Position numbers and translations under genes: made by a program. Under the pieces are notes generated by a model. That model made no database searches. It was not told the origin of the DNA and worked only from the letters and a program-made list of their open reading frames with translations. From Escherichia coli (lineage in GTDB: Bacteria; Pseudomonadota; Gammaproteobacteria; Enterobacterales; Enterobacteriaceae): 64,000 nt of DNA. The DNA lies in assembly GCF_046105845.1 (NCBI RefSeq), contig NZ_CP151004.1. The stretch is one strand, 5' to 3'. Shown here piece by piece: positions 16,899 to 51,467 of the stretch (position 1 is the stretch's first letter; every line of letters starts with the position of its first letter).

Positions 16899-17798
16899 TC
16901 AGTCCAGGTGCTCTTTCATTACGCCAGCCAGCCACTGCATAAACAGGTTTACACGCCGGGAAAGCTCCCGACGCTGCGGATAAATCAGCGAAAGGGAGAG
17001 CGGCTCGGCACGGTAGCCAGGCAACACTTCAATAAGCCGCCCGGCACGCAGGGCTTCGCGCACGGCAATGCGCGGGATCTGAATAATCCCCAGACCGGCA
17101 AGACCGGCGGCGAGATAGTTTTCGCGACTGTTTACCGTCAACATGCCGCCAGACTTAAACCACTGGACGCCATTAACGCTGGCAACCTCAAAACCTAACG
17201 GATGTACACCCAGGTGCGGTGTGTAGCGCACTATTGCGTGCGAAGTCAGATCGTCGGGGCTTTGAGGATAACCAAAGCGCGTCAGATAGTGCGGACTGGC
17301 ACAGTTGACCATGGTCAGTTTGCCGAGGGGACGGGCGATAACGCCATTTTCCGGTAACGCGCCAGTGCGTATCACGCAATCAAAACCATCGTGAAGAATA
17401 TCTACCGGACGGTCATGGCTACTCAGCTCCAGCTCAATTCCCGGATGCAGATAGAGAAATTCCGACAGACGCGGCAGTAACAGGCTTTTCGCGATTCCTG
17501 GCGGGATGTCGATGCGTAATTTACCGCTGATACTGGTGGCATCCTGTTGAAACAGACCGTCCAGTTCGTTGAGATTACTCAACACATCTTTTGCCCGTTG
17601 ATAATAGGTCATGCCTTCTGGCGTGAGTTTGACCCGCCGCGTGGTGCGCTGGAGAAGCTGGGTGCCAAGTTGATGTTCCAGTGCCTGTATCTGGCGCGAA
17701 ACACTTCCCTTTGGCAAAGCAAAGAAATCCGCCGCGCGGGAAAAACTTTCCAGCTCCGCGACTTTGATGAACAACTGCATTGCGTGAATTTTATCCAT
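16899..17798 (-). CDS. yhjC: LysR-family transcriptional regulator YhjC
   Basis: Start taken at internal Met (MDKIHAMQLFIKVAELESFSRAADF...), a typical LysR N-terminal HTH; the ORF extends 24 codons further upstream. Confidence 0.88.
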   Translation of the reverse strand: MDKIHAMQLFIKVAELESFSRAADFFALPKGSVSRQIQALEHQLGTQLLQRTTRRVKLTPEGMTYYQRAKDVLSNLNELDGLFQQDATSISGKLRIDIPPGIAKSLLLPRLSEFLYLHPGIELELSSHDRPVDILHDGFDCVIRTGALPENGVIARPLGKLTMVNCASPHYLTRFGYPQSPDDLTSHAIVRYTPHLGVHPLGFEVASVNGVQWFKSGGMLTVNSRENYLAAGLAGLGIIQIPRIAVREALRAGRLIEVLPGYRAEPLSLSLIYPQRRELSRRVNLFMQWLAGVMKEHLD

Positions 17799-18316
17799 TT
17801 CTTTGACCGATTGTTGTTCACAGCGAAACAGTAACGCGCATATCGCATTGTTTATTGTTTTTTCTAACATCTAATGCCGGGTTTCACAATGTTGTCATGA
17901 CGAATGTAGCGATTTCTCAGCAGGAAAATGGCGGAATAGCTTTATGAGAAGGTGAATCCCCTTAAACAGAGCGTATTTTTCAGCGATTCCCTTTAAAGTG
18001 AACAGAGGACGTATTGGCTATTTGTGCTTATTTTTGTCTCATTGCCATTTGTTATTTTTGCTTGTGGTCGCGGAGTTTCATTTTTAATTGCATGCGTACT
18101 AACCATCAATATAAGGAAATCCTCAAAATTGTTTTAAATAGTGCCCTCGACATGTAATTTCAGGCGTTTAGCTGTAACTATTTATATCGGTAACTATTTT
18201 CTACGCGTCATCTCTGTAGAATGGCTACCGCCAAATGGCGAATTCTTATTTTTTCTCGCGGGTAATACCCTTCCACTACTTAAGTCTTTTTAACGTATTC
18301 AGGTGGAGATTCAGTT

Positions 18317-18919
18317 ATGCAAATAGTCATGTTTGACAGGCAGTCAATATTTATTCATGGAATGAAAATCAGTTTACAGCAGCGTATTCCAGGAGTGAGT
18401 ATTCAGGGGGCCAGTCAGGCAGATGAGTTATGGCAAAAGCTGGAAAGTTACCCTGAAGCCTTAGTGATGCTCGATGGCGATCAGGATGGTGAGTTTTGCT
18501 ACTGGTTGCTGCAAAAAACCGTGGTGCAATTTCCTGAGATTAAGGTGTTAATCACGGCGACGGATTGCAATAAACGGTGGTTACAGGAAGTTATCCATTT
18601 TAATGTGCTGGCCATTGTGCCTCGTGATTCAACCGTTGAGACATTTGCGTTGGCGGTAAATAGTGCGGCGATGGGGATGATGTTTCTGCCGGGAGACTGG
18701 CGAACGACGCCGGAAAAGGACATTAAAGATCTCAAATCGTTAAGCGCCCGCCAGCGGGAGATTTTAACCATGTTAGCGGCGGGCGAATCAAATAAGGAGA
18801 TCGGCAGGGCGCTGAATATCAGTACCGGAACGGTAAAAGCGCATCTGGAATCCCTGTATCGCCGTCTGGAAGTGAAAAATCGCACCCAGGCGGCAATGAT
18901 GTTAAATATCTCCTCCTGA
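18317..18919 (+). CDS. yhjB: LuxR/FixJ-type HTH regulator with receiver-like N-terminal domain, YhjB
   Basis: 200-aa ORF; C-terminal LuxR-type HTH (LSARQREILTMLAAGESNKEIGRALNISTGTVKAHLESLYRRL). Confidence 0.88.
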   Translation: MQIVMFDRQSIFIHGMKISLQQRIPGVSIQGASQADELWQKLESYPEALVMLDGDQDGEFCYWLLQKTVVQFPEIKVLITATDCNKRWLQEVIHFNVLAIVPRDSTVETFALAVNSAAMGMMFLPGDWRTTPEKDIKDLKSLSARQREILTMLAAGESNKEIGRALNISTGTVKAHLESLYRRLEVKNRTQAAMMLNISS

Positions 18920-18969
18920 AGAGGATAATTTTACAGCCAGCAGGAAGTTAGCGGCTGGCTGTAAAAATA

Positions 18970-20649
<1,680 letters not shown>

Positions 20650-21023
20650 TTATCGGGCTTTTCTTTAAGGGTAGTCATTCGCTCCGCCTGGTGGGCGACA
20701 AAGCGTGCGGTGGATCACGTTTATTAACCTGTCAAAAAATATAACGCACTAATATCCATGGAATTTATAAAAATACAGATTTCGTGTTGTTTTTCATTTT
20801 CAGAACATTCAATCCTACTCTCGCCGCAATCATGATATGCCATTCCTGATCTGGATAATAGGCATAGGCTATCTTATTGATAGTTTATATTCATGTAATT
20901 GATTGATTCCTATCAAAAAGCGTATCTCCCTGTTTTTTATGATGGCTTTGTCTCGCAGAGACGTTTGCAGCATTCTGGAAAATTTTCTGGGTCACAATAA
21001 CTCACCACCGTGAGGGAAGAATA

Positions 21024-22421
21024 ATGAAAATGGTCTCACGTATTACCGCGATCGGCCTGGCTGGCGTCGCGATTTGCTATTTAGGGTTATCTGGTTATGT
21101 GTGGTACCACGATAATAAACGCAGTAAACAGGCTGATGTTCAGGCATCTGCTGTCAGTGAAAATAATCAGGTTTTAGGCTTTCTCCGCGAAAAAGGATGC
21201 GACTATTGCCACACGCCTTCGGCAGAATTACCCGCCTATTATTATATTCCTGGCGCGAAACAGTTGATGGATTACGACATTAAGCTCGGATATAAATCTT
21301 TTAACCTCGAGGCCGTGCGTGCGGCTCTGCTGGCTGATAAACCTGTTTCGCAAAGCGATCTGAATAAGATTGAATGGGTGATGCAGTATGAAACTATGCC
21401 ACCAACGCGTTATACCGCGCTACACTGGGCGGGTAAGGTGAGTGATGAAGAGCGGGCGGAAATACTGGCCTGGATTGCAAAACAGCGCGCAGAATATTAC
21501 GCCAGTAATGATACTGCTCCGGAGCATCGCAATGAACCGGTGCAGCCCATCCCGCAAAAACTGCCTACCGATGCGCAAAAAGTGGCGTTGGGCTTTGCGC
21601 TGTATCACGATCCCCGTTTATCGGCTGATAGCACCATTTCATGCGCTCATTGCCATGCGTTGAATGCGGGGGGCGTCGATGGCAGAAAAACATCGATTGG
21701 TGTTGGTGGCGCAGTTGGGCCGATTAACGCGCCGACGGTATTTAACTCAGTATTTAACGTTGAGCAGTTCTGGGATGGTCGTGCGGCAACATTGCAGGAT
21801 CAGGCTGGTGGACCGCCGTTGAACCCGATTGAAATGGCGTCGAAATCCTGGGACGAAATTATTGCTAAGCTGGAAAAAGATCCGCAGCTTAAAGCTCAGT
21901 TCCTCGAAGTCTATCCGCAAGGTTTCAGTGGCGAAAATATTACTGATGCCATTGCTGAATTTGAGAAAACATTAATTACGCCGGATTCCCCATTTGATAA
22001 ATGGTTGCGTGGAGATGAGAATGCGCTGACGGCACAACAGAAAAAAGGCTATCAATTATTTAAAGATAATAAATGTGCAACTTGTCATGGTGGTATTATT
22101 CTCGGCGGACGTTCCTTCGAACCGTTGGGGCTGAAAAAAGACTTTAATTTTGGTGAAATTACGGCGGCGGATATTGGTCGTATGAATGTGACTAAAGAAG
22201 AGCGCGATAAATTGCGTCAGAAAGTACCCGGTTTACGTAACGTTGCACTAACGGCACCGTACTTCCATCGCGGTGATGTGCCGACGCTGGACGGGGCGGT
22301 GAAACTGATGTTGCGCTATCAGGTAGGCAAAGAGCTGCCGCAGGAGGATGTGGATGATATCGTAGCTTTCCTGCACAGTCTGAACGGGGTTTACACGCCG
22401 TATATGCAGGATAAACAATAA
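21024..22421 (+). CDS. yhjA: Membrane-anchored c-type cytochrome peroxidase YhjA with three CXXCH haem motifs
   Basis: 465-aa ORF with N-terminal TM anchor and motifs CDYCH, CAHCH and CATCH. Confidence 0.93.
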   Translation: MKMVSRITAIGLAGVAICYLGLSGYVWYHDNKRSKQADVQASAVSENNQVLGFLREKGCDYCHTPSAELPAYYYIPGAKQLMDYDIKLGYKSFNLEAVRAALLADKPVSQSDLNKIEWVMQYETMPPTRYTALHWAGKVSDEERAEILAWIAKQRAEYYASNDTAPEHRNEPVQPIPQKLPTDAQKVALGFALYHDPRLSADSTISCAHCHALNAGGVDGRKTSIGVGGAVGPINAPTVFNSVFNVEQFWDGRAATLQDQAGGPPLNPIEMASKSWDEIIAKLEKDPQLKAQFLEVYPQGFSGENITDAIAEFEKTLITPDSPFDKWLRGDENALTAQQKKGYQLFKDNKCATCHGGIILGGRSFEPLGLKKDFNFGEITAADIGRMNVTKEERDKLRQKVPGLRNVALTAPYFHRGDVPTLDGAVKLMLRYQVGKELPQEDVDDIVAFLHSLNGVYTPYMQDKQ

Positions 22422-22532
22422 TTAATTTAATCGCCCGAACAGGAATGTTCGGGTGATTTTTATTGCGATAATAAAGTCTGTTTTTAATATTATCATGTTA
22501 AATGTTTATATTATAAAAAGTCGTTTTTCTGC

Positions 22533-22552
22533 TTAGGATTTTGTTATTTAAA
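22533..22552 (+). promoter_or_regulatory. GAD box (GadE/GadX/GadW-dependent activation site) upstream of gadA
   Basis: ttaggattttgttatttaaa matches the 20-bp GAD box as recalled; about 80 bp upstream of the gadA ATG. Confidence 0.7.
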
Positions 22553-22631
22553 TTAAGCCTGTAATGCCTTGCTTCCATTGCGGATAAATCCTACTTTTTT
22601 ATTGCCTTCAAATAAATTTAAGGAGTTCGAA

Positions 22632-24032
22632 ATGGACCAGAAGCTGTTAACGGATTTCCGCTCAGAACTACTCGATTCACGTTTTGGCGCAAAGGCCATT
22701 TCTACTATCGCGGAGTCAAAACGATTTCCGCTGCATGAAATGCGCGATGATGTCGCATTCCAGATTATCAATGATGAATTATATCTTGATGGCAACGCTC
22801 GTCAGAACCTGGCCACTTTCTGCCAGACCTGGGACGACGAAAATGTCCACAAGTTGATGGATTTATCCATTAACAAAAACTGGATCGACAAAGAAGAATA
22901 TCCGCAATCTGCAGCCATCGACCTGCGTTGCGTAAACATGGTTGCCGATCTGTGGCATGCGCCTGCGCCGAAAAATGGTCAGGCCGTTGGCACCAACACC
23001 ATTGGTTCTTCCGAGGCCTGTATGCTCGGCGGGATGGCGATGAAATGGCGTTGGCGCAAGCGTATGGAAGCTGCAGGCAAACCGACCAACAAACCAAACC
23101 TGGTGTGCGGTCCGGTACAAATCTGCTGGCATAAATTCGCCCGCTACTGGGATGTGGAGCTGCGTGAGATCCCTATGCGCCCCGGTCAGTTGTTTATGGA
23201 CCCGAAACGCATGATTGAAGCCTGCGACGAAAACACCATCGGCGTGGTGCCGACTTTCGGCGTGACCTACACCGGTAACTATGAGTTCCCGCAACCGCTG
23301 CACGATGCGCTGGATAAATTCCAGGCCGACACCGGTATCGACATCGACATGCACATCGACGCCGCCAGCGGTGGCTTCCTGGCACCGTTCGTCGCCCCGG
23401 ATATCGTCTGGGACTTCCGCCTGCCGCGTGTGAAATCGATCAGTGCTTCAGGCCATAAATTCGGTCTGGCTCCGCTGGGCTGCGGCTGGGTTATCTGGCG
23501 TGATGAAGAAGCGCTGCCGCAGGAACTGGTGTTCAACGTTGACTATCTCGGTGGTCAGATAGGGACTTTCGCCATCAACTTCTCCCGCCCGGCGGGTCAG
23601 GTAATTGCACAGTACTATGAATTCCTGCGCCTCGGTCGTGAAGGCTATACCAAAGTACAGAACGCCTCTTACCAGGTTGCCGCTTATCTGGCGGATGAAA
23701 TCGCCAAACTGGGGCCGTATGAGTTCATCTGTACCGGTCGCCCGGACGAAGGCATCCCGGCGGTTTGCTTCAAACTGAAAGATGGTGAAGATCCGGGATA
23801 CACCCTCTACGACCTCTCTGAACGTCTGCGTCTGCGCGGCTGGCAGGTTCCGGCCTTCACTCTCGGCGGTGAAGCCACCGACATCGTGGTGATGCGCATT
23901 ATGTGTCGTCGCGGCTTCGAAATGGACTTTGCTGAACTGTTGCTGGAAGACTACAAAGCCTCCCTGAAATATCTCAGCGATCACCCGAAACTGCAGGGTA
24001 TTGCCCAGCAGAACAGCTTTAAACACACCTGA
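22632..24032 (+). CDS. gadA: Glutamate decarboxylase alpha (PLP-dependent)
   Basis: 466-aa sequence from ATG 22632 ([21 protein letters not shown]...) with SD aaggag upstream; called gadA rather than gadB because gadX lies directly downstream. Confidence 0.95.
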
Positions 24033-24050
24033 TAACATAACGTTGTAAAA

Positions 24051-24097
24051 ACCGAATGCCCAACCTTTAAAAAACAGTTGGGCATTCGGTTGCTTAT
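24051..24097 (+). terminator. Rho-independent terminator of gadA
   Basis: Perfect 14-bp stem accgaatgcccaac / gttgggcattcggt followed by tgcttatt. Confidence 0.8.
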
Positions 24098-24400
24098 TAA
24101 TCGCAATAATATATTGGCTGTCTATTCATCGTGTTGATAAGATATATGTTATATGAATGTTTATTAAATGTAGCAATTATATTTAATGTAACAAAAAGGG
24201 ATTATTTGCTTACTATTAATTTCCCTGCGTTCTTATACACGTTTTTGTATTATAAATCCAGTCATCCTGCCCGTAGAACATCACACATTATCATCCTGTT
24301 TTCCCGCTTCGTTTAAATTTATTTATCAATCAATTTGACTTAAGAGGGCGGCGTGCTACATTAATAAACAGTAATATGTTTATGTAATATTAAGCCAACT

Positions 24401-25225
24401 ATGCAATCACTACATGGGAATTGTCTAATTGCGTACGCAAGACATAAATATATTCTCACCATGGTTAATGGTGAATATCGCTATTTTAATGGCGGTGATC
24501 TGGTTTTTGCGGATGCAAGCCAAATTCAAGTGGATAAGTGTGTTGAGAATTTCGTATTAGTTTCAAGAGACACGCTTTCATTATTTCTCCCGATGCTCAA
24601 GGAGGAGGCATTAAAACTTCATGCACATAAAAAAGTTCCTGCATTACTCGTTCATCACTGTACCAGAGATATTCCTGTTTTTCAGGAAGTTGCGCAACTA
24701 TCGCAGAATAAGAATCTTCGCTATGCAGAAATGCTACGTAAAAGGGCATTAATCTTTGCGTTGTTATCTGTTTTTCTTGAGGATACGCAGTTTATACCGT
24801 TACTTCTGAACGTGTTGCAACCGAACATGCGAACACGAGTTTGTACGGTCATCAATAATAATATCGCCCATGAGTGGACATTAGCCCGAATCGCTAGCGA
24901 ATTGTTGATGAGTCCAAGCCTGTTAAAGAAAAAATTGCGCGAAGAAGGTACGTCATATTCACAGTTGCTTACTGAGTGTAGAATGCAGCGTGCTTTACAA
25001 CTTATTGTTATATATGGTGTTTCAATTAAGCGAGTTGCAGTATCCTGTGGATATCACAGCGTGTCGTATTTCATTTACGTTTTTCGAAATTATTATGGGA
25101 TGACGCCCACAGAGTATCAGGAGCGATCGGCGCAGGAATTACCGAACTGTGGCTCGGCGGCAAGTATGGCTGCGCAAGGGAATTTTTACGGCACTGACCG
25201 TTCTGCGGAAGGAATAAGATTATAG
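24401..25225 (+). CDS. gadX: AraC-family acid-resistance regulator GadX
   Basis: 274-aa ORF with C-terminal AraC-type HTH; AT-rich. Confidence 0.93.
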   Translation: MQSLHGNCLIAYARHKYILTMVNGEYRYFNGGDLVFADASQIQVDKCVENFVLVSRDTLSLFLPMLKEEALKLHAHKKVPALLVHHCTRDIPVFQEVAQLSQNKNLRYAEMLRKRALIFALLSVFLEDTQFIPLLLNVLQPNMRTRVCTVINNNIAHEWTLARIASELLMSPSLLKKKLREEGTSYSQLLTECRMQRALQLIVIYGVSIKRVAVSCGYHSVSYFIYVFRNYYGMTPTEYQERSAQELPNCGSAASMAAQGNFYGTDRSAEGIRL

Positions 25226-25241
25226 AGTTTTACTCAGACAT

Positions 25242-25347
25242 AAAAAAAACCCGGCATAGGGGACCGGGAAGAGGATAGTCTGCCGTCTCCAGACTAATAA
25301 ACCGTTATAACACTCCCTGTTGGCACGGGAAACTTTGTGCTCTCAGT
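25242..25347 (-). ncRNA. gadY: GadY small RNA, cis-antisense to the gadX 3' end
   Basis: Minus-strand sequence actgagagcacaaagtttcccgtgccaacaggg...cccggtcccctatgccgggtttttttt matches GadY as recalled; terminal hairpin plus U-tract. Confidence 0.8.
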
Positions 25348-25593
25348 AAGTTAAATATAACTTTTACTGGAAATAAGATCAGCCATTTTTTTATAAACAT
25401 AAGCTATACGCTGTGCGAAAATATATTCGTGCTGCATTTACTTATTATCAATTAACTGTTATGCAAAACTACTTTGTGGATAAATTTTGGTCCTACCAAA
25501 TCTGGCAGTTTTTGCGCTAAGAAACAGTCTGGCATCATTTCATTAGTATACTGAAATTGAAATAATCGCAGTAATGAAATATAAGGGATAGTC

Positions 25594-26322
25594 ATGACTC
25601 ATGTCTGCTCGGTGATCCTCGTTCGTCGTTCATTCGATATTTATCATGAACAGCAAAAAATATCGTTGCACAACGAGAGTATCCTGTTACTGGATAAAAA
25701 TTTGGCAGACGATTTTACGTTTTGTTCACCGGATACGCGACGACTGGATATCGATGAGCTGACAGTTTGCCATTACTTACAAAATATTCGTCAGATACCA
25801 CGCAATTTAGGGTTACATAGCAAAGACCGTCTGTTAATTAACCAGTCACCCCCCATGCCGCTGGTGACGGCGATTTTTGATAGTTTCAATGACTCTGGGG
25901 TAAATTCGCCGATACTGAGCAAAATGCTCTATCTTTCCTGTTTATCGATGTTTTCTCATAAGAAAGAACTGATCCCCTTACTTTTCAATAGTATCAGTAC
26001 TGTTTCAGGAAAAGTTGAACGCCTTATTAGCTTTGATATCGCTAAACGTTGGTATCTGCGCGATATCGCGGAAAGAATGTATACCAGCGAGAGTCTCATC
26101 AAAAAAAAGTTGCAGGATGAAAATACCTGTTTCAGTAAAATATTACTCGCCTCCAGGATGTCGATGGCCAGACGATTACTCGAGTTACGTCAAATTCCTC
26201 TGCATACTATTGCGGAAAAATGTGGCTATAGCAGTACGTCGTACTTTATAAACACATTTCGACAATATTATGGTGTAACGCCACATCAGTTTGCGCAACA
26301 TTCGCCAGGTACCTTTTCCTGA
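25594..26322 (+). CDS. gadW: AraC-family acid-resistance regulator GadW
   Basis: 242-aa ORF with C-terminal AraC-type HTH, paralogous to GadX. Confidence 0.93.
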   Translation: MTHVCSVILVRRSFDIYHEQQKISLHNESILLLDKNLADDFTFCSPDTRRLDIDELTVCHYLQNIRQIPRNLGLHSKDRLLINQSPPMPLVTAIFDSFNDSGVNSPILSKMLYLSCLSMFSHKKELIPLLFNSISTVSGKVERLISFDIAKRWYLRDIAERMYTSESLIKKKLQDENTCFSKILLASRMSMARRLLELRQIPLHTIAEKCGYSSTSYFINTFRQYYGVTPHQFAQHSPGTFS

Positions 26323-26684
26323 CATATTTTGCATTTGAATATTGGTCAGGATCTCACACCTGCTTCATGTGAAACTCTTCCCTGATGATTTCTGCCGGGC
26401 TACCGGCTAGTTCTCTTTCGCAGTTTGCCAGGCGGTATAGGTATTTTCAGGAGGAAAAGACTCGGCATGTTTGGGATTATTAAGCTGACAATTCATACGA
26501 TTACGGGAATGTGGGTCAGTATTGTGTTGTTTAAATTGATGACGAATGGCTGGAGTGGTTTCTACTTTCAGTGCTGTGTACTAAGCCTGGTATTCCTGAC
26601 GGTTAGCTGGTTGTTGAGTGGTGAATGGTTAGCAGGAAAGAGTAAGGCTGAATCCTCACGTTCAACCTTACTCTCATTTACACG

Positions 26685-29600
26685 TTACGCTTTTTTAAAG
26701 CGGGCAAAGAGATGTTCCACTACAACGAAAAAGACCGGAACGAAGTAAATTGCCAGCACTGTTGCGGCAAACATCCCGCCCATCACGCCGGTACCTACCG
26801 CGTTTTGCGCGCCAGAACCGGCACCATGACTGATAACCAGCGGCAGCACGCCGAGAATAAAGGCCAGAGAGGTCATCAGGATTGGGCGTAAACGCATTCG
26901 CGCCGCTTCGATGATCGCCTCTATCGGCGTTTTCCCTTCTTTCTGCATCATCTCAACGGCAAATTCGACAATCAGGATGGCGTTTTTGGCGGAAAGCCCG
27001 ATGGTGGTCAGCAAACCAACCTGGAAGTAGACGTCATTACTTAAGCCGCGTAGATCGGTGGCCAGTAATGCGCCAACGACGCCTAACGGTACAACCAACA
27101 TCACCGAGAACGGAATTGACCAGCTCTCATAAAGTGCGGCGAGGGCGAGGAACACCACGACCAGTGAAATGGCATACAGCGCGGGAGCCTGGTTTGAGGA
27201 TAACGCTTCCTGATACGACAGTCCGGTCCATGAGTAGCCGACGCCTGCCGGAAGTTTAGCGACCAGGTCTGCCATAAATTTCATGGCGTCACCGGTACTT
27301 TTCCCGGCCGCCGCTTCACCTAAAATCTCCATTGACGGGATGCCGTTGTAGCGTTCCAGTCGCGGTGAACCATAGGTCCATTCGGTAGACGAATAGGCAG
27401 AAAGCGGTGCCATCGTGCCAGAGGCGTTGCGTACATACCACTGGTTGATGTTATCCGGCAACATACGGAACGGCGTGCCTGCCTGGACATACACTTTTTT
27501 CACCCGCCCCTGGTTGAGGAAGTCGTTCACGTAGCTGCTGCCGAAGGCGGTGGAAATTGTCTGGTTGATATCAGACAGCGCCACACCCATTGCCTCGGCT
27601 TTCGCGGCGTTGACGTTCACTTTGAACATCGGTGTATCTTCCAGGCCGTTCGGGCGTACCCCGGTGACTTGATTCGGTGATTGCGCTGCCAGTGATAATA
27701 GCTCGTTTCGCGCCTGGGTCAGTTTTTCGTGCCCCAGGTTGCCGTTGTCCAGCAGTTCCATATCAAAACCTGACGCGGTACCCAGTTCAGCCACCGCAGG
27801 TAAGTTGAACGGGAAGACGACGGCTTTATTGATACTGCTTAACGCAATCATTGCCCGCTGAATGATCGCGGTAACCGAGTTTTCCTCACCGACACGTTCA
27901 GACCACGGTTTGAGGCTGATAAACGCCAGACCGTTGTTTTGCCCCTGGCCGCTGAAGCCAAAGCCGCCAACGGTAAACACCGACTGAACATTATCTTTCT
28001 CTTTAGTCAGATAATAATCCGTCACCTGTTGCAGCACTTTCGTGGTGTTAACCATGGTGGCACCGGAAGGTAACTGCGCGGTGGTCATAAATACCCCCTG
28101 ATCCTCTTCTGGTAAGAAAGAGGTCGGCGTACGCAGGAACAGCACCGCCATCCCGGCGCAAATCAGCAGGTAGACCACCATGTAGCGACCGGTACAACGC
28201 AACAGCGAGCGGGTGCTATCGGTATAGTGCTGAGTTGATTTTTCAAACAGCGTGTTGAAGCGTGCGAACAGGGCGTTAGGTTTATGACCGCCTTCCGGCG
28301 CGGCTTTCAGAATGGTGGCGCACAGGGCAGGAGTCAGGCTCATTGCCACAAATACTGAAAGCAGCATGGAGGAGATCAGCGTGATGGAGAACTGGCGGTA
28401 GATCTCCCCGGTTGCACCGCTCATAAAGGCCATCGGCATAAACACTGCGGAAAGAACAACGGCAATCCCGACCAGCGCACGTTGGATCTGCCCCATCGAT
28501 TTATGCGTTGCTTCCTTCGGCGGTAGCTTATCTTCCGCAATGACACGCTCGACGTTCTCCACCACCACGATGGCGTCATCCACCAGTAACCCTATCGCCA
28601 GCACCATCCCGAACATAGTTAACGTGTTGATGGTGAAACCGACCGCCGACAAGATCGCAAACGTCCCGAGAATAACCACCGGTACGGCAATCGTCGGGAT
28701 GATTGTGGCACGGAAATTCTGCAAAAACAGATACATGACTAGGAAGACGAGGATGATAGCCTCAACCAGTGTTTTAAAAACTTCCTGAATAGAAATTTCG
28801 ATAAACGGCGTGGTGTCGTAAGGATAAACCGTCTTCAGACTTGCGGGGAAATAGGCTGATAAGCGGTTCAGCTCCTCTTTGACTGCCCGCGAGGTATCCA
28901 GGGCGTTTGCTCCGGTAGCCAGTTTGATGGCGATCCCGGCAGCAGGTTTGCCGTTATAGCGCGCCACGGTGGAATAATCTTCCGCTCCAAGTTCGACGCG
29001 GGCGACATCACGCAGCAGCACTTGCGAACCATCTTGCTGAACTTTCAACAGGATTTTGCCAAATTCTTCCGGCGTTTGCAGACGCGTCTGCACAATGATC
29101 GAGGCGTTTAGTTGCTGGTCTGCCGCCTGTGGCATGCCACCCAGTTGACCACCAGAAATCTGGTTGTTCTGCACCTTAATCTGGGAAATAACATCGGAAG
29201 GTACCAGATTGTATTTATTGAGTTTTTGCGGGTCCAGCCAGATACGCATGGCGTACTCGGAACCAAAGAGCTGTACGCTACCAACGCCCGCGGTACGGCT
29301 TAGCGGGTCTTTGATATTAGACGCTACATAGTCCGCGATATCGTACTGGTTGAGGCTGCCGTTATCAGAAATAAACGCCGCTACCATCAGGATATTACTG
29401 CTCGACTTATCGACGCTAATCCCCTGCTGCTGCACCGCTTCAGGTAATGAAGGCATAGCGAGTTGCAGTTTATTTTGCACCTGAACCTGTGCGATATCAG
29501 GAGATGTCCCAGTCTCGAAGGTCAGAGTGATAGAGGCATTGCCCGCCGCATCACTGGTTGAAGACATGTACATCAGGCCATCAAGCCCATTCATATTTTG

Positions 29601-30980: not shown

Positions 30981-31318
30981 TTTAGTCCCTGAAAATTCTT
31001 GAGAAATAACGGTTCTTTAAATTGCGCGCGAGGAGAGATATGAGGGATTTACAGACCAGCGGCGTAGTGGGGTTGTCAGCCAGTAAGGTGGGATACAGGC
31101 ATAGTGATCGACATGGTGAGGTCAACGACAAAAAAAATGTTGCCGTTCTGCCAACAGTTCCTGCCAGCATTCGGGCAACGAAGGGTTCTACTGGTGGATA
31201 CATATACCAGGGGAATAAAGTCGTTTTAACCTCTCCTTTAGTAATCACCGGGGGTAATGAAATCAGCATCTGCATCCCTCGTCATGCCAGCCATCAATTT
31301 CAGTTGCTTATGTCCTGA

Positions 31319-40264: not shown

Positions 40265-40594
40265 TTGAGTTATATATGAAATACAACCGTCGATTCAATA
40301 CGCACGGCGTTACAAGCGTATTTATTTTTGATTTTTATCAAGATGCTTCGTCAGCTAACGTTCTTGTTACCGACTAAATTTCAGCGCGGGAAAAAGCTGA
40401 GAACCCAGAGATATCGAGGCTTGCAGAGCAAAGCGAAGAGAAAATTATCACTGTTAACGACAAAGTTTAGTGATGAGGTCATGGGGGAATAACCATAAAA
40501 ATAAAGTGGTTTTCAGGGCGCGGGATAGGTTTCATAACCCCCTGTTTATTGTGTTAATGGCGGTTAAAAAAAGCTTGATCATAAAAAATTGATC

Positions 40595-40613: not shown

Positions 40614-40881
40614 ACATTTGCGCTTAACAAAACACGACCATATGGATAACAAAACCATAGCATTTGCAAGGGATAACGCACAGCGCTCTTCACTCCTGAT
40701 GGGGCATATCGTTTTGCCTGACAAAGAGGGCGTGCTTTTGCGTATTTGCCGAGATACCAGGCAATTTCATGGGATATAAACGCCTGTAAACTCACCCGGC
40801 GAATATTATCGCCCTGAATTTTAAATAAATTTATTTTTCGCCAGCCACCCCGGTATTAACCCAGGCAGCCAGCATTTTTTA

Positions 40882-40896
40882 TTTTCCTCATGGAGA
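40882..40896 (+). promoter_or_regulatory. U-rich/SD hairpin in the chuA leader (candidate FourU-type RNA thermometer)
   Basis: ttttcc tcat ggaga: the U-rich tract can pair with the GGAG Shine-Dalgarno just 5' of the ATG. Confidence 0.4.
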
Positions 40897-40902
40897 ATCG
40901 CT

Positions 40903-42885
40903 ATGTCACGTCCGCAATTTACCTCGTTGCGTTTGAGTTTGTTGGCTTTGGCTGTTTCTGCCACCTTGCCAACGTTTGCTTTTGCTACTGAAACCATGAC
41001 CGTTACGGCAACGGGGAATGCCCGTAGTTCCTTCGAAGCGCCTATGATGGTCAGCGTCATCGACACTTCCGCTCCTGAAAATCAAACGGCTACTTCAGCC
41101 ACCGATCTGCTGCGTCATGTTCCTGGAATTACTCTTGATGGTACCGGACGAACCAACGGTCAGGATGTAAATATGCGTGGCTATGATCATCGCGGCGTGC
41201 TGGTTCTTGTCGATGGTGTTCGCCAGGGAACGGATACCGGACACCTGAATGGTACTTTTCTTGATCCGGCGCTGATCAAGCGTGTTGAGATTGTTCGCGG
41301 ACCTTCAGCATTACTGTATGGCAGTGGCGCGCTGGGTGGGGTGATCTCCTACGATACGGTCGATGCAAAAGATTTATTGCAGGAAGGACAAAGTAGTGGT
41401 TTTCGTGTCTTTGGTACTGGCGGCACGGGGGACCATAGCCTGGGATTAGGCGCGAGCGCGTTTGGACGAACTGAAAATCTGGATGGTATTGTGGCCTGGT
41501 CCAGTCGCGATCGGGGTGATTTACGCCAGAGCAATGATGAAACCGCGCCGAATGACGAGTCCATTAATAACATGCTGGCGAAAGGGACCTGGCAAATTGA
41601 TTCAGCCCAGTCTCTGAGCGGTTTAGTGCGTTACTACAACAACGACGCGCGTGAACCAAAAAATCCGCAGACCGTTGAAGCTTCTGATAGCAGCAACCCG
41701 ATGGTTGATCGTTCAACAATTCAACGCGATGTGCAGCTTTCTTATAAACTCGCCCCGCAGGGCAACGACTGGTTAAATGCAGATGCAAAAATTTACTGGT
41801 CGGAAGTCCGTATTAATGCGCAAAACACGGGGAGTTCCGGCGAGTATCGTGAACAGATAACAAAAGGAGCCAGGCTGGAGAACCGTTCCACTCTATTTGC
41901 CGACAGTTTCGCTTCTCACTTACTGACATATGGCGGTGAGTATTATCGTCAGGAACAACATCCGGGCGGCGCGACGACGGGCTTCCCGCAAGCAAAAATC
42001 GATTTTAGCTCTGGCTGGCTACAGGATGAGATCACCTTACGCGATCTGCCGATTACCCTGCTTGGCGGAACCCGCTATGACAGTTATCGCGGTAGCAGCG
42101 ACGGCTACAAAGATGTTGATGCTGACAAATGGTCATCTCGTGCGGGGATGACTATCAACCCGACCAACTGGCTGATGTTATTTGGCTCATATGCCCAGGC
42201 ATTCCGCGCCCCGACGATGGGCGAAATGTATAACGATTCTAAGCACTTCTCGATTGGTCGCTTCTATACCAACTATTGGGTGCCAAACCCGAACTTACGT
42301 CCGGAAACTAACGAAACTCAGGAGTACGGTTTTGGGCTGCGTTTTGATGACCTGATGTTGTCCAATGATGCCCTGGAATTTAAAGCCAGCTACTTTGATA
42401 CCAAAGCGAAGGATTACATCTCCACGACCGTCGATTTCGCGGCGGCGACAACTATGTCGTATAACGTCCCGAACGCCAAAATCTGGGGTTGGGATGTGAT
42501 GACGAAATATACCACTGATCTGTTTAGCCTTGATGTGGCCTATAACCGTACCCGCGGCAAAGACACCGATACCGGCGAATATATCTCCAGTATTAACCCG
42601 GATACCGTTACCAGCACCCTGAATATTCCGATCGCTCACAGTGGCTTCTCTGTTGGGTGGGTTGGTACGTTTGCCGATCGCTCAACACATATCAGCAGCA
42701 GTTACAGCAAACAACCAGGCTATGGCGTGAATGATTTCTACGTCAGTTATCAAGGACAACAGGCGCTCAAAGGTATGACCACTACTTTGGTGTTGGGTAA
42801 CGCTTTCGACAAAGAGTACTGGTCGCCACAAGGCATCCCACAGGATGGTCGTAATGGAAAAATTTTCGTGAGTTATCAATGGTAA
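40903..42885 (+). CDS. chuA: TonB-dependent outer-membrane haem/haemoglobin receptor ChuA
   Basis: 660-aa ORF with signal peptide, TonB-box-like region (ETMTVTAT) and aromatic C-terminus ending ...VSYQW. Confidence 0.95.
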   Translation: MSRPQFTSLRLSLLALAVSATLPTFAFATETMTVTATGNARSSFEAPMMVSVIDTSAPENQTATSATDLLRHVPGITLDGTGRTNGQDVNMRGYDHRGVLVLVDGVRQGTDTGHLNGTFLDPALIKRVEIVRGPSALLYGSGALGGVISYDTVDAKDLLQEGQSSGFRVFGTGGTGDHSLGLGASAFGRTENLDGIVAWSSRDRGDLRQSNDETAPNDESINNMLAKGTWQIDSAQSLSGLVRYYNNDAREPKNPQTVEASDSSNPMVDRSTIQRDVQLSYKLAPQGNDWLNADAKIYWSEVRINAQNTGSSGEYREQITKGARLENRSTLFADSFASHLLTYGGEYYRQEQHPGGATTGFPQAKIDFSSGWLQDEITLRDLPITLLGGTRYDSYRGSSDGYKDVDADKWSSRAGMTINPTNWLMLFGSYAQAFRAPTMGEMYNDSKHFSIGRFYTNYWVPNPNLRPETNETQEYGFGLRFDDLMLSNDALEFKASYFDTKAKDYISTTVDFAAATTMSYNVPNAKIWGWDVMTKYTTDLFSLDVAYNRTRGKDTDTGEYISSINPDTVTSTLNIPIAHSGFSVGWVGTFADRSTHISSSYSKQPGYGVNDFYVSYQGQQALKGMTTTLVLGNAFDKEYWSPQGIPQDGRNGKIFVSYQW

Positions 42886-42933: not shown

Positions 42934-43962
42934 ATGAACCACTACACACGCTGGCTTGAGTTAAAAGAACAAAATCCCGGAAAGTACGCGCGTGACATCG
43001 CAGGTTTAATGAATATTAGCGAAGCAGAACTGGCATTTGCACGCGTCACGCACGATGCGTGGCGGATGCGCGGCGATATCCGTGAAATTCTGGCGGCGCT
43101 CGAAAGTGTTGGCGAGACCAAATGTATTTGTCGTAATGAATATGCAGTCCATGAGCAAGTTGGTGCGTTCACAAACCAGCATTTGAACGGACATGCCGGA
43201 TTGATCCTCAATCCACGCGCGCTGGATTTGCGTCTGTTTCTCAATCAATGGGCCAGTGTTTTCCACATCAAAGAAAATACGACTCGTGGCGAACGCCAGA
43301 GTATTCAGTTCTTTGATCATCAGGGCGATGCATTACTAAAAGTTTATGCCACCGACAATACCGATATGGCGGCATGGAGTGAGCTTCTGGCACGGTTTAT
43401 CGCCGATGAGAATACGCCGCTTGAGTTAAAAGCCGTTGATGCGCCAGTCGTTCAAATGCGAGCCGATGCCAGTGTGGTCGAGCAAGAGTGGCGGGCGATG
43501 ACCGACGTTCATCAGTTTTTTACGTTGCTCAAGCGCCACAACCTGACGCGCCAACAGGCGTTCAATCTGGTGGCAGACGATTTGGCCTGCAAAGTATCCA
43601 ACAGTGCGTTGGCGCAAATTCTTGAATCTGCACAGCAGGATGGCAATGAAATCATGGTGTTTGTTGGCAACCGTGGCTGCGTACAGATTTTCACTGGCGT
43701 GGTAGAAAAAGTGGTGCCAATGAAAGGTTGGCTGAATATTTTTAACCCGACGTTTACTCTTCATCTATTAGAAGAGAGCATTGCTGAAACCTGGGTAACC
43801 CGTAAACCTGCTAGTGACGGTTATGTGACCAGTCTGGAATTGTTTGCCCATGATGGTACGCAGATAGCGCAACTTTATGGTCAACGTACAGAAGGCGAAC
43901 AGGAGCAAGCGCAATGGCGTAAGCAAATTGCTTCGCTGATACCGGAAGGCGTTACTGTATAA
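42934..43962 (+). CDS. chuS: Cytoplasmic haem oxygenase / haem utilisation protein ChuS
   Basis: 342-aa ORF immediately downstream of chuA. Confidence 0.92.
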   Translation: MNHYTRWLELKEQNPGKYARDIAGLMNISEAELAFARVTHDAWRMRGDIREILAALESVGETKCICRNEYAVHEQVGAFTNQHLNGHAGLILNPRALDLRLFLNQWASVFHIKENTTRGERQSIQFFDHQGDALLKVYATDNTDMAAWSELLARFIADENTPLELKAVDAPVVQMRADASVVEQEWRAMTDVHQFFTLLKRHNLTRQQAFNLVADDLACKVSNSALAQILESAQQDGNEIMVFVGNRGCVQIFTGVVEKVVPMKGWLNIFNPTFTLHLLEESIAETWVTRKPASDGYVTSLELFAHDGTQIAQLYGQRTEGEQEQAQWRKQIASLIPEGVTV

Positions 43963-50997: not shown

Positions 50998-51148
50998 ATT
51001 GCGCTCCTGATTGTTGCCGGTAGTGTCTCTCTTCGAAGCGGATAAGTCAAAAACATATATGACTTAACGAATATGTAAGTGTGGAGAAAGGTATAGATGT
51101 GAATTAAGCGTTGGGTATTCATTTGAAAGGAGGTCTGAATCAGGACGT

Positions 51149-51233
51149 AAAAAAACCGACTTTGCGTCGGTTTTTTACTTTCCAGCCCTGAGTTGGTGGC
51201 TCTGGCTGGAGTGAGAGAGCTCTTATCTAACAG
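51149..51233 (-). ncRNA. agrB: agr-type antisense sRNA repeat (probably agrB), antitoxin of dinQ
   Basis: About 85 nt between arsR and dinQ; minus-strand transcript would end at hairpin ccgacgcaaagtcgg plus U-tract; body is complementary to a dinQ leader segment (ctggccggagtgagagagttcttatctaaca at about 51632-51662); A/B assignment from recalled K-12 order. Confidence 0.5.
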
Positions 51234-51383
51234 TTCAATACTATTAGCCAGTGGCTAACATTGCAAGAATTAGCGATTTCTTCAGCTGGAGAAGGGACAG
51301 TTTGCTATACATGTTGGTGAAAGAGGATTTATATACTTTCATCGGGTCGCTGCCGTACCAAGCCTTGTCCGAATCCGGACGTA

Positions 51384-51467
51384 AAAAAACCGACTTCGCG
51401 TCGGTTTTTTACTTTCCAGCCCTGAGTTGGTGGCTCTGGTTGGAGTGAGAATGCCATCATCTAACGC
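51384..51467 (-). ncRNA. agrA: agr-type antisense sRNA repeat (probably agrA)
   Basis: Second copy of the same repeat and hairpin, 235 bp from the first. Confidence 0.5.

Follow-up and report, generated by a model that had tools for sequence, protein, structure and literature searches.

A trihaem peroxidase with an N-terminal helix encoded by yhjA (ccp) of Escherichia coli

The classical bacterial cytochrome c peroxidases (CCPs) are dihaem proteins of ~300-345 residues in their mature form, which take their electrons from soluble cytochromes or cupredoxins. YhjA of E. coli, at 465 residues, carries a third CXXCH motif within an extra 170 residues. Its nearest described counterparts are QPO of Aggregatibacter actinomycetemcomitans and PerC of Zymomonas mobilis, which have a similar N-terminal membrane segment, monohaem domain and dihaem core and use quinol donors; the comparison with these two is made from their description in the literature (PMC10301912) and from 22 distant relatives that have this architecture. 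YhjA itself has been described as a trihaem, membrane-anchored enzyme that is fed from the quinol pool (PMC10301912, PMC8115020), and as such it is an example of a dihaem peroxidase rewired to that pool by a fused membrane helix and monohaem module.

The three haems of YhjA have potentials of +133 mV (NT haem, ligated by His63/Met125), +210 mV (E haem) and -170 mV (P haem) (PMC10301912). Ca2+ is needed for full activity, no reductive activation is required, and both hydroquinone and ABTS can serve as electron donors (PMC10301912). The P haem has a labile hydroxo ligand and H2O2 is bound in the oxidised state, while mutation of Met125 to alanine renders the NT haem high-spin and lowers both its potential and the activity (PMC10301912). 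An older statement that YhjA was negative for quinol peroxidase activity (PMC4899803) is superseded by the biochemistry from 2018 and 2023 cited in PMC10301912. All of the published biochemistry was carried out on a soluble construct that lacks the helix, and the artificial donors may bypass the NT haem (PMC10301912); for this reason the direct oxidation of quinol by the membrane-bound enzyme is still referred to as 'proposed'. With regard to its physiological role, a passage in PMC8115020, citing Khademian & Imlay 2017, has H2O2 acting as a terminal acceptor for E. coli through YhjA when oxygen and nitrate are absent. The known importance of the enzyme lies in this, that E. coli respires on hydrogen peroxide without oxygen.

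Here we describe the gene as it occurs in a 64-kb window, the whole stretch of E. coli DNA that was analysed. We are highly confident that the open reading frame at 21024-22421 is yhjA (= ccp) and that it encodes a non-classical trihaem bacterial peroxidase, membrane-anchored, quinol-fed and H2O2-reducing; nothing that can be read from its sequence speaks against the trihaem peroxidase assignment. The haem potentials, the quinol peroxidase activity, the ligation by Met125 and the physiological role are taken from the papers cited, and our own analysis concerns sequence features, homology, fold and regulatory motifs. YhjA is an already known enzyme, with its genetics, biochemistry and structure characterised, and is annotated correctly in thousands of genomes. 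The initial annotation of this stretch was correct, the finding is an ordinary one and the analysis adds nothing new on YhjA/Ccp.

The yhjA gene and its regulatory region

The gene and the elements surrounding it are as follows.

20858..20894, + strand: OxyR-type site, ATAG-N7-CTAT-N7-ATAG-N7-tCAT, from a scan with the four-element consensus; some 74 bp upstream of where transcription is inferred to start
20903..20916, + strand: perfect FNR box TTGAT-TCCT-ATCAA (TTGATTCCTATCAA), an exact match to the consensus
20938..20943, + strand: candidate -10 hexamer TATGAT, picked out by eye for its distance from the FNR box, and put forward on that basis only
21012..21017, + strand: Shine-Dalgarno sequence GAGGGA, 6 nt before the ATG, from the sequence
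21024..22421, + strand: yhjA/ccp coding sequence, from the open reading frame, the RefSeq annotation and an exact protein match
22429..22468, + strand: intrinsic terminator (13-bp stem, 4-nt loop, T-run) 8 nt past the stop codon, from a sequence scan

On re-translation yhjA is a single ATG-initiated open reading frame of 465 codons plus a stop, the latter being included in the end coordinate, while the opposite strand in the same register holds many stops. The ccp gene annotated in RefSeq has an identical start and end, and a protein of exactly this sequence is recorded as "cytochrome c peroxidase [Escherichia coli]" for no fewer than 1000 contigs. Of 5426 complete E. coli genomes, 5422 have an annotated ccp that the DNA matches, in every case on the chromosome. 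Over the surrounding region the identity to the best-matching complete E. coli genome in RefSeq is only ~99%. Two close genomes were inspected, those of strains C4 and A10, and both have the gene order treF-ccp-gadA. Strain A10 has a five-ORF insertion between yhjJ and kdgK, which is absent from the 64-kb window. Relative to strain C4 there are 11 differences in yhjA, 10 of them synonymous and the other a conservative non-synonymous change (Q49K), a ratio that argues for purifying selection on a functional gene. Compared with YhjA/Ccp of E. coli K-12, the protein and its surroundings are alike in the treF-ccp-gadA locus, the length, the haem ligands, the catalytic and Ca2+ residues and the FNR and OxyR motifs.

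The spacer between treF and yhjA is 404 bp long. With up to 2 mismatches allowed, the four-element OxyR consensus has no match in the window other than the site in this spacer, where 0.01 would be expected by chance, and for the FNR box, which is conserved in strain A10, 0.09 exact matches would be expected per whole window. Were TATGAT to act as the -10 element, the centre of the FNR box would fall near -40.5, which is a class II position. The yhjA promoter was not reported by a scan with the sigma-70 consensus, as would be expected of an activator-dependent promoter that has no -35 element. The predicted FNR and OxyR-type sites match the dual regulation that has been published, co-activation by FNR and OxyR being attributed to Partridge 2007 in the passages of PMC10301912 and PMC4207228 that cite it. 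Transcription of yhjA would then need both FNR, signalling low oxygen, and OxyR, signalling peroxide, and with both needed YhjA would thus be a terminal respiratory oxidase that uses H2O2 at oxic/anoxic boundaries. Since the terminator begins 8 nt past the stop codon the gene looks to be monocistronic. The copy of yhjA in the window is intact, with every functional residue and both regulatory sites retained.

Haem motifs and the additional N-terminal domain

The haem attachment sites and the N-terminal domain are located as follows.

21198..21212, + strand: CXXCH 1, CDYCH, aa 59-63, attachment site of the NT haem with proximal ligand H63; from re-translation, with C59, C62 and H63 invariant in 23 sequences
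21642..21656, + strand: CXXCH 2, CAHCH, aa 207-211, peroxidatic (P) haem with proximal ligand H211; from re-translation and alignment, the P assignment being that of PMC10301912
22074..22088, + strand: CXXCH 3, CATCH, aa 351-355, electron-transfer (E) haem with proximal ligand H355; from re-translation, alignment and PMC10301912
21159..21530, + strand: extra N-terminal monohaem (NT) domain, Haem_bd, aa 46-169, from PF14376; no counterpart in dihaem CCPs
21396..21398, + strand: codon of M125, distal ligand of the NT haem; present and invariant, the ligand role coming from M125A (PMC10301912)

Re-translation gives exactly three CXXCH motifs, so that the three listed in the initial annotation (CDYCH, CAHCH and CATCH) are borne out with none of them missing. 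Six of the seven cysteines of YhjA lie inside these motifs and the seventh, C18, is within the hydrophobic segment at the N-terminus. When the protein sequence was shuffled 20,000 times a single CXXCH arose in 39 of the shuffles and two or more in none; three motifs are therefore far beyond chance.

Conservation was assessed from an alignment of YhjA with 22 distant trihaem relatives (23 sequences, 36-47% identity). Invariant in all 22 relatives are C59, C62, H63, M125, C207, C210, H211, W250, Q260, E270, C351, C354, H355, T410, P412 and M429, with N235, H134 and W135 near-invariant. The residues of YhjA that have been named in the literature are present in the window's protein, namely Y19, Y25, D30, F53, H63, Y72, M82, Y90, W118, M125, H134, W135, H211, N235, W250, Q260, E270, H355, T410 and P412. 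The one mention of 'M84' in PMC10301912 conflicts with the M82 that the paper gives at other places and is probably an error.

The first CXXCH lies in a match to the Pfam family Haem_bd (PF14376) over aa 19-152, with an E-value of 3e-30 and a score of 105.3 bits against a cut-off of 27. A search with aa 1-176 against 1.84 billion representative proteins returned 383 relatives at an E-value of 0.001 or better. These include at least 22 full-length proteins of 421-492 residues with the layout of YhjA, one of them from a Bilophila sp., together with many stand-alone proteins of 165-196 residues that have a signal sequence, one CXXCH and the signature 'MPP..Y...HW'. As relatives exist both in full-length and in stand-alone form, the NT domain is a self-contained monohaem module which became fused to a dihaem peroxidase.

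It might be argued, given that CXXCH is a short motif, that the third copy is there by chance or is vestigial, sitting in a non-functional N-terminal extension of an otherwise ordinary dihaem peroxidase. This general point is all that speaks for such a reading, to which we attach next to no weight. More than one motif was not seen in any of the 20,000 shuffles, C59, C62, H63 and M125 do not vary among the 22 divergent relatives, and the domain matches a curated haem-binding family that also occurs as stand-alone monohaem proteins. Moreover, M125A alters both the spectra and the activity, and a C59A/C62A variant could not be isolated (PMC10301912).

An extra haem domain is what emerges from alignment with the dihaem CCPs, the check that had been suggested with the initial annotation. 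The CCPs aligned were those of N. europaea (1IQC), N. gonorrhoeae (6QKN), P. aeruginosa (1EB7), S. oneidensis (3O5C) and P. pantotrophus (2C1U), as well as others. They match only aa ~167-459 of YhjA, individual alignments starting at aa 167-184 and ending at 456-459 with E-values of 1e-64 to 1e-75, and residue 2 of the N. europaea protein aligns with residue 170 of YhjA. The extra N-terminal haem domain is thereby confirmed. The same is seen in terms of structure, where the dihaem folds cover ~60% of a model of YhjA (TMq 0.60) while being themselves almost fully covered (TMt 0.82-0.91). As the dihaem CCPs align and superpose only on the C-terminal part, residues 1-169 of YhjA, the helix and the monohaem domain, are a genuine addition that the classical enzymes do not have.

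The dihaem core and its relatives

The core and two of its key positions are as follows.

21531..22391, + strand: dihaem peroxidase core, aa 170-456 (CCP_MauG plus cytochrome c domain), from PF03150, the solved dihaem CCPs and the fold
21702..21704, + strand: codon of V227, at the site of the distal His of classical CCPs ('SIGVGG' against 'SIGHKW' in N. europaea)
22308..22310, + strand: codon of M429, aligned with the Met ligand of the E haem of dihaem CCPs ('KLMLRYQ' against 'ETMGRIQ' in N. europaea); invariant

The core is covered by the Pfam families CCP_MauG (PF03150; aa 185-332, 193.3 bits against a cut-off of 25.6, E 5e-57) and Cytochrom_C (PF00034; aa 340-453, 45.9 bits against a cut-off of 21.3). 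It is 38-46% identical to the classical dihaem CCPs (1IQC, 1EB7/2VHD, 6QKN/6FU3, 2C1U/2C1V and 3O5C) and has the same fold. The two CXXCH motifs of the core, CAHCH and CATCH, align with those of the solved enzymes, and common to both are a bridging Trp, a Ca2+ site, a catalytic Glu and Gln and a Met ligand to the E haem, which in YhjA are W250, N235/T410/P412, E270/Q260 and M429 respectively.

Where the two differ is on the P haem, to which the classical enzymes provide a distal His that locks them in the resting state. The corresponding residue of YhjA is Val227, which pairs with the histidine of 'SIGHKW' in 1IQC and of 'SQGHKG' in 6QKN. The column holds Ile or Val in 21 of the 22 trihaem relatives, with a gap in the other (P0087), and His in none. 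With valine in place of the distal His the P haem would be open to substrate without reductive activation, which fits what has been published on YhjA (PMC10301912). By this substitution, and by its size and the number of its haems, YhjA falls outside the classical subgroup of soluble, reductively activated dihaem CCPs, and it belongs with the non-classical trihaem quinol peroxidases (YhjA/QPO/PerC).

The closest solved structure is PDB 9QDT, "Cytochrome c peroxidase YhjA" (released 2025-07-30), in which 415 of 417 residues are identical over aa 46-462. Relative to the crystallised protein the allele in the window has Q49 in place of Lys and A291 in place of Thr, both of them conservative and neither involving a named functional residue. 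A literature search for a paper on 9QDT or a crystal structure of YhjA found none. An AlphaFold2 model of YhjA, built on 23 sequences (mean pLDDT 88, pTM 0.85), superposes on 9QDT in a fold search with a TMt of 0.96 and an rmsd of 1.9 Å. Together, the Pfam domains, the near-identity to 9QDT and the literature on YhjA support the initial reading of the protein as a trihaem, membrane-bound quinol peroxidase.

Searching with the same model in Foldseek retrieved the dihaem structures 1IQC, 3O5C, 6QKN, 2VHD and 2C1V with E-values of 1e-24 to 1e-26 and TMt of 0.82-0.91. The model superposes on the constitutively active or mixed-valence forms with an rmsd of 1.6 for 1IQC and 3O5C and of 2.0 for 2VHD, compared with 5.7 for 1EB7 and 5.1-6.7 for 2C1U, which are oxidised closed forms. 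The model thus appears to be closer to the open than to the closed forms of the CCPs, which would fit with the absence of reductive activation, though coming from a model this is only suggestive.

CCP_MauG takes in two kinds of enzyme, and YhjA might also be thought of as a dihaem enzyme of the MauG/MbnH type, oxidising a protein or peptide substrate rather than reducing peroxide in respiration. Its best matches in NCBIfam are indeed to MbnH (1e-46) and MauG (1.5e-42), yet these score far below the curated cut-offs of their models (159.6 against 362.85 for TIGR04039 and 145.8 against 443.85 for TIGR03791), and no model in the NCBIfam profile search exceeded its cut-off. The solved CCPs are matched with E-values of ~1e-75; with MauG and MbnH-like chains the values are 1e-23 to 1e-31. 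The ligand position of the six-coordinate haem is occupied by Met429, as in the CCPs. In MauG a tyrosine is found at this position, at which the entry title 'Y294H-MauG' only hints. No mau or mbn genes neighbour yhjA, which is flanked by treF and gadA, and peroxidase activity of YhjA has been measured (PMC10301912). An enzyme of the MauG/MbnH type would therefore seem extremely improbable and we retain the assignment as a peroxide-reducing enzyme.

The helix at the N-terminus and the path of electrons

A single feature precedes the NT domain.

21042..21113, + strand: N-terminal transmembrane anchor, aa 7-30, from hydropathy, the modelled helix and the TM prediction in PMC10301912

YhjA has only one strongly hydrophobic stretch, a predicted helix at aa ~4-30 (Kyte-Doolittle peak at aa 3-27); windows of 19 residues with a mean above 1.6 start only at aa 3-9, inside ITAIGLAGVAICYLGLSGYVW. 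In the AlphaFold2 model aa 2-38 form a single unbroken helix, after which comes a disordered linker of low confidence (aa 33-43), and a hydrophobic N-terminal segment is found in 21 of the 22 distant trihaem relatives. The membrane anchor proposed in the initial annotation thus agrees with both the hydropathy peak and the modelled helix. In the literature a transmembrane helix has been predicted at aa 7-30, and a signal-peptide prediction gave no cleavage site (PMC10301912). From this we infer that the helix is kept uncleaved as a membrane anchor.

The layout of the segment, with MKMVSR followed by a hydrophobic core and G21-L22-S23, is nevertheless that of the n, h and c regions of a Sec signal peptide, with the small residues G21 and S23 satisfying the -3/-1 rule. 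If it were cleaved, YhjA would be a soluble periplasmic trihaem peroxidase with some other periplasmic redox protein as its donor. The relative P0148 ('MRKITLLLCFLALSQPCFAKK', with a maximum Kyte-Doolittle value of only 1.29) resembles a classical cleaved signal, a second relative, P0069, has a Cys after the hydrophobic stretch as in a lipoprotein signal, and the soluble construct of YhjA without the helix is active (PMC10301912). We nonetheless regard cleavage as very unlikely. Besides the published prediction of a helix at aa 7-30 without a cleavage site (PMC10301912), the model would have the helix run on unbroken from aa 2 to 38 before reaching the disordered linker. The homologous QPO of A. 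actinomycetemcomitans has been reported to be membrane-bound (PMC10301912, PMC4899803), as has the E. coli enzyme by Imlay's group (PMC8115020), and neither a small cytochrome nor a cupredoxin that could act as donor is encoded next to yhjA.

With the helix retained as an anchor, it would seem likely that YhjA sits in the inner membrane by one uncleaved N-terminal helix with the remainder in the periplasm, where the Ccm system would attach the three c-type haems. Three such sites require export and Ccm maturation, so the bulk of the protein should be periplasmic and tethered by the helix. Electrons from membrane quinols would enter at the NT haem (His63/Met125) and pass to the E haem (His355/Met429), and from there across Trp250 to the P haem (His211), next to the Ca2+ site formed by Asn235, Thr410 and Pro412. 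At the P haem Glu270 and Gln260 would assist in the reduction of H2O2 to water. The overall path, from quinol through the NT and E haems and W250 to the P haem and H2O2, is well supported.

The exact site at which YhjA oxidises quinol is more a matter of inference. It is also the sole point at which the present analysis goes slightly beyond the YhjA literature, and the lead is a weak one given how poorly the TM region can be aligned. Tyr19, Tyr25 and Asp30 of the TM helix have been proposed in the literature as the quinol site. Among the 22 distant trihaem relatives these three residues show no conservation, in an alignment that is unreliable over the TM region; a subgroup has in their stead, at the segment's periplasmic end, a 'P-[LV]-x-N-L' motif, and a few of the relatives appear to be cleaved or lipid-anchored. 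H134 and W135 of the NT domain are near-invariant. One tentative possibility, though on balance we think it unlikely, is that electron entry lies on the side of the NT haem domain that faces the membrane and not within the helix, which would then be mainly a tether.

The chu/shu haem-uptake cluster and its FNR-type palindrome

Synteny with strain A10, a close complete E. coli genome, puts the chu/shu haem-uptake cluster within the acid fitness island, with yhiD on one side and dctR on the other. The placement is backed by the coding start of chuA (around position 40904) and by the thermoregulator immediately 5' of that start codon:

40874-40905, plus strand, shuA/chuA FourU 5'-UTR thermoregulator (Rfam RF02597, 60.1 bits, barely over the gathering score of 58)

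In chu-positive strains the cluster is found in this same place. The chuTWXY operon encodes ChuW and ChuY, the enzymes of anaerobic haem degradation. The divergent spacer between chuT (shuT) and chuA contains a second perfect FNR-type palindrome, TTGATTTTTATCAA, at 40328-40341. From there it is about 114 bp downstream to the ATG of chuT (40220-40218, minus strand), and the palindrome is kept in strain A10 (43226-43239 of the corresponding locus, L002). It would make biological sense for anaerobic haem breakdown to be under the direct control of FNR through this putative site. The regulators of chu given in PMC9002310, a paper on chu regulation, are Fur, the FourU thermometer, CyaR, RyhB and FnrS, and no direct FNR site at chu is described there.

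The yhjA gene and the N-terminus of its relatives

In an alignment of YhjA with 22 distant trihaem relatives (36-47% identity), a P-[LV]-x-N-L motif is conserved near the N-terminus, at the periplasmic end of the hydrophobic segment, in a subgroup comprising P0066, P0070, P0087, P0093, P0094, P0099, P0105, P0116 and P0119. The stand-alone relative P0102 also has this motif, whereas E. coli YhjA has Y..Y.D at the same position. The N-terminus of P0148 looks like an ordinary cleavable signal peptide and that of P0069 resembles a lipoprotein signal. Taken with the motif subgroup, these N-terminal sequences suggest that the mode of membrane attachment may vary among the YhjA-type trihaem relatives.

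The 5' leader of yhjA carries a short inverted repeat, CTCAC-CACC-GTGAG, at 21001-21014, which runs into the beginning of the Shine-Dalgarno region (GTGAGGGA). This repeat could partially occlude the ribosome-binding site; the scan listed it only as a weak terminator-like site on the minus strand.

Against 5426 complete RefSeq E. coli genomes the best identity was 98.9% across the 10 kb from 17000 to 27000 and 99.2% for the yhjA DNA alone. In contrast to the DNA identity of at most 98.9% over the surrounding 10 kb, the protein sequence of YhjA exactly matches a common allele. The lineage from which the DNA comes is therefore absent from this genome set, and may be a Shigella or an atypical branch of Escherichia.

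Small RNAs and the start of gadA

Small RNAs matched by Rfam families:

25237-25350, minus strand, GadY small RNA (RF00122, 150 bits)
31130-31201, minus strand, ES205 sRNA match (RF02754, 105 bits)
51147-51230, minus strand, AgrB-family antisense RNA, first of two copies (RF02891, 108 bits)
51381-51464, minus strand, AgrB-family antisense RNA, second copy (RF02891, 100 bits)

The gene for GadY sits between gadX and gadW, the usual arrangement for this locus. The two AgrB-family RNAs are in tandem, and are the agrA/agrB pair of the arsR-gor region that opposes the dinQ toxin.

The mechanical ORF list gives gadA as 487 residues from a TTG start (22569-24032, plus strand). We rejected this N-terminally extended form as an artefact of longest-ORF calling, since in close genomes gadA is annotated with 466 residues from an internal ATG (MDQKLL..., at about 22632).
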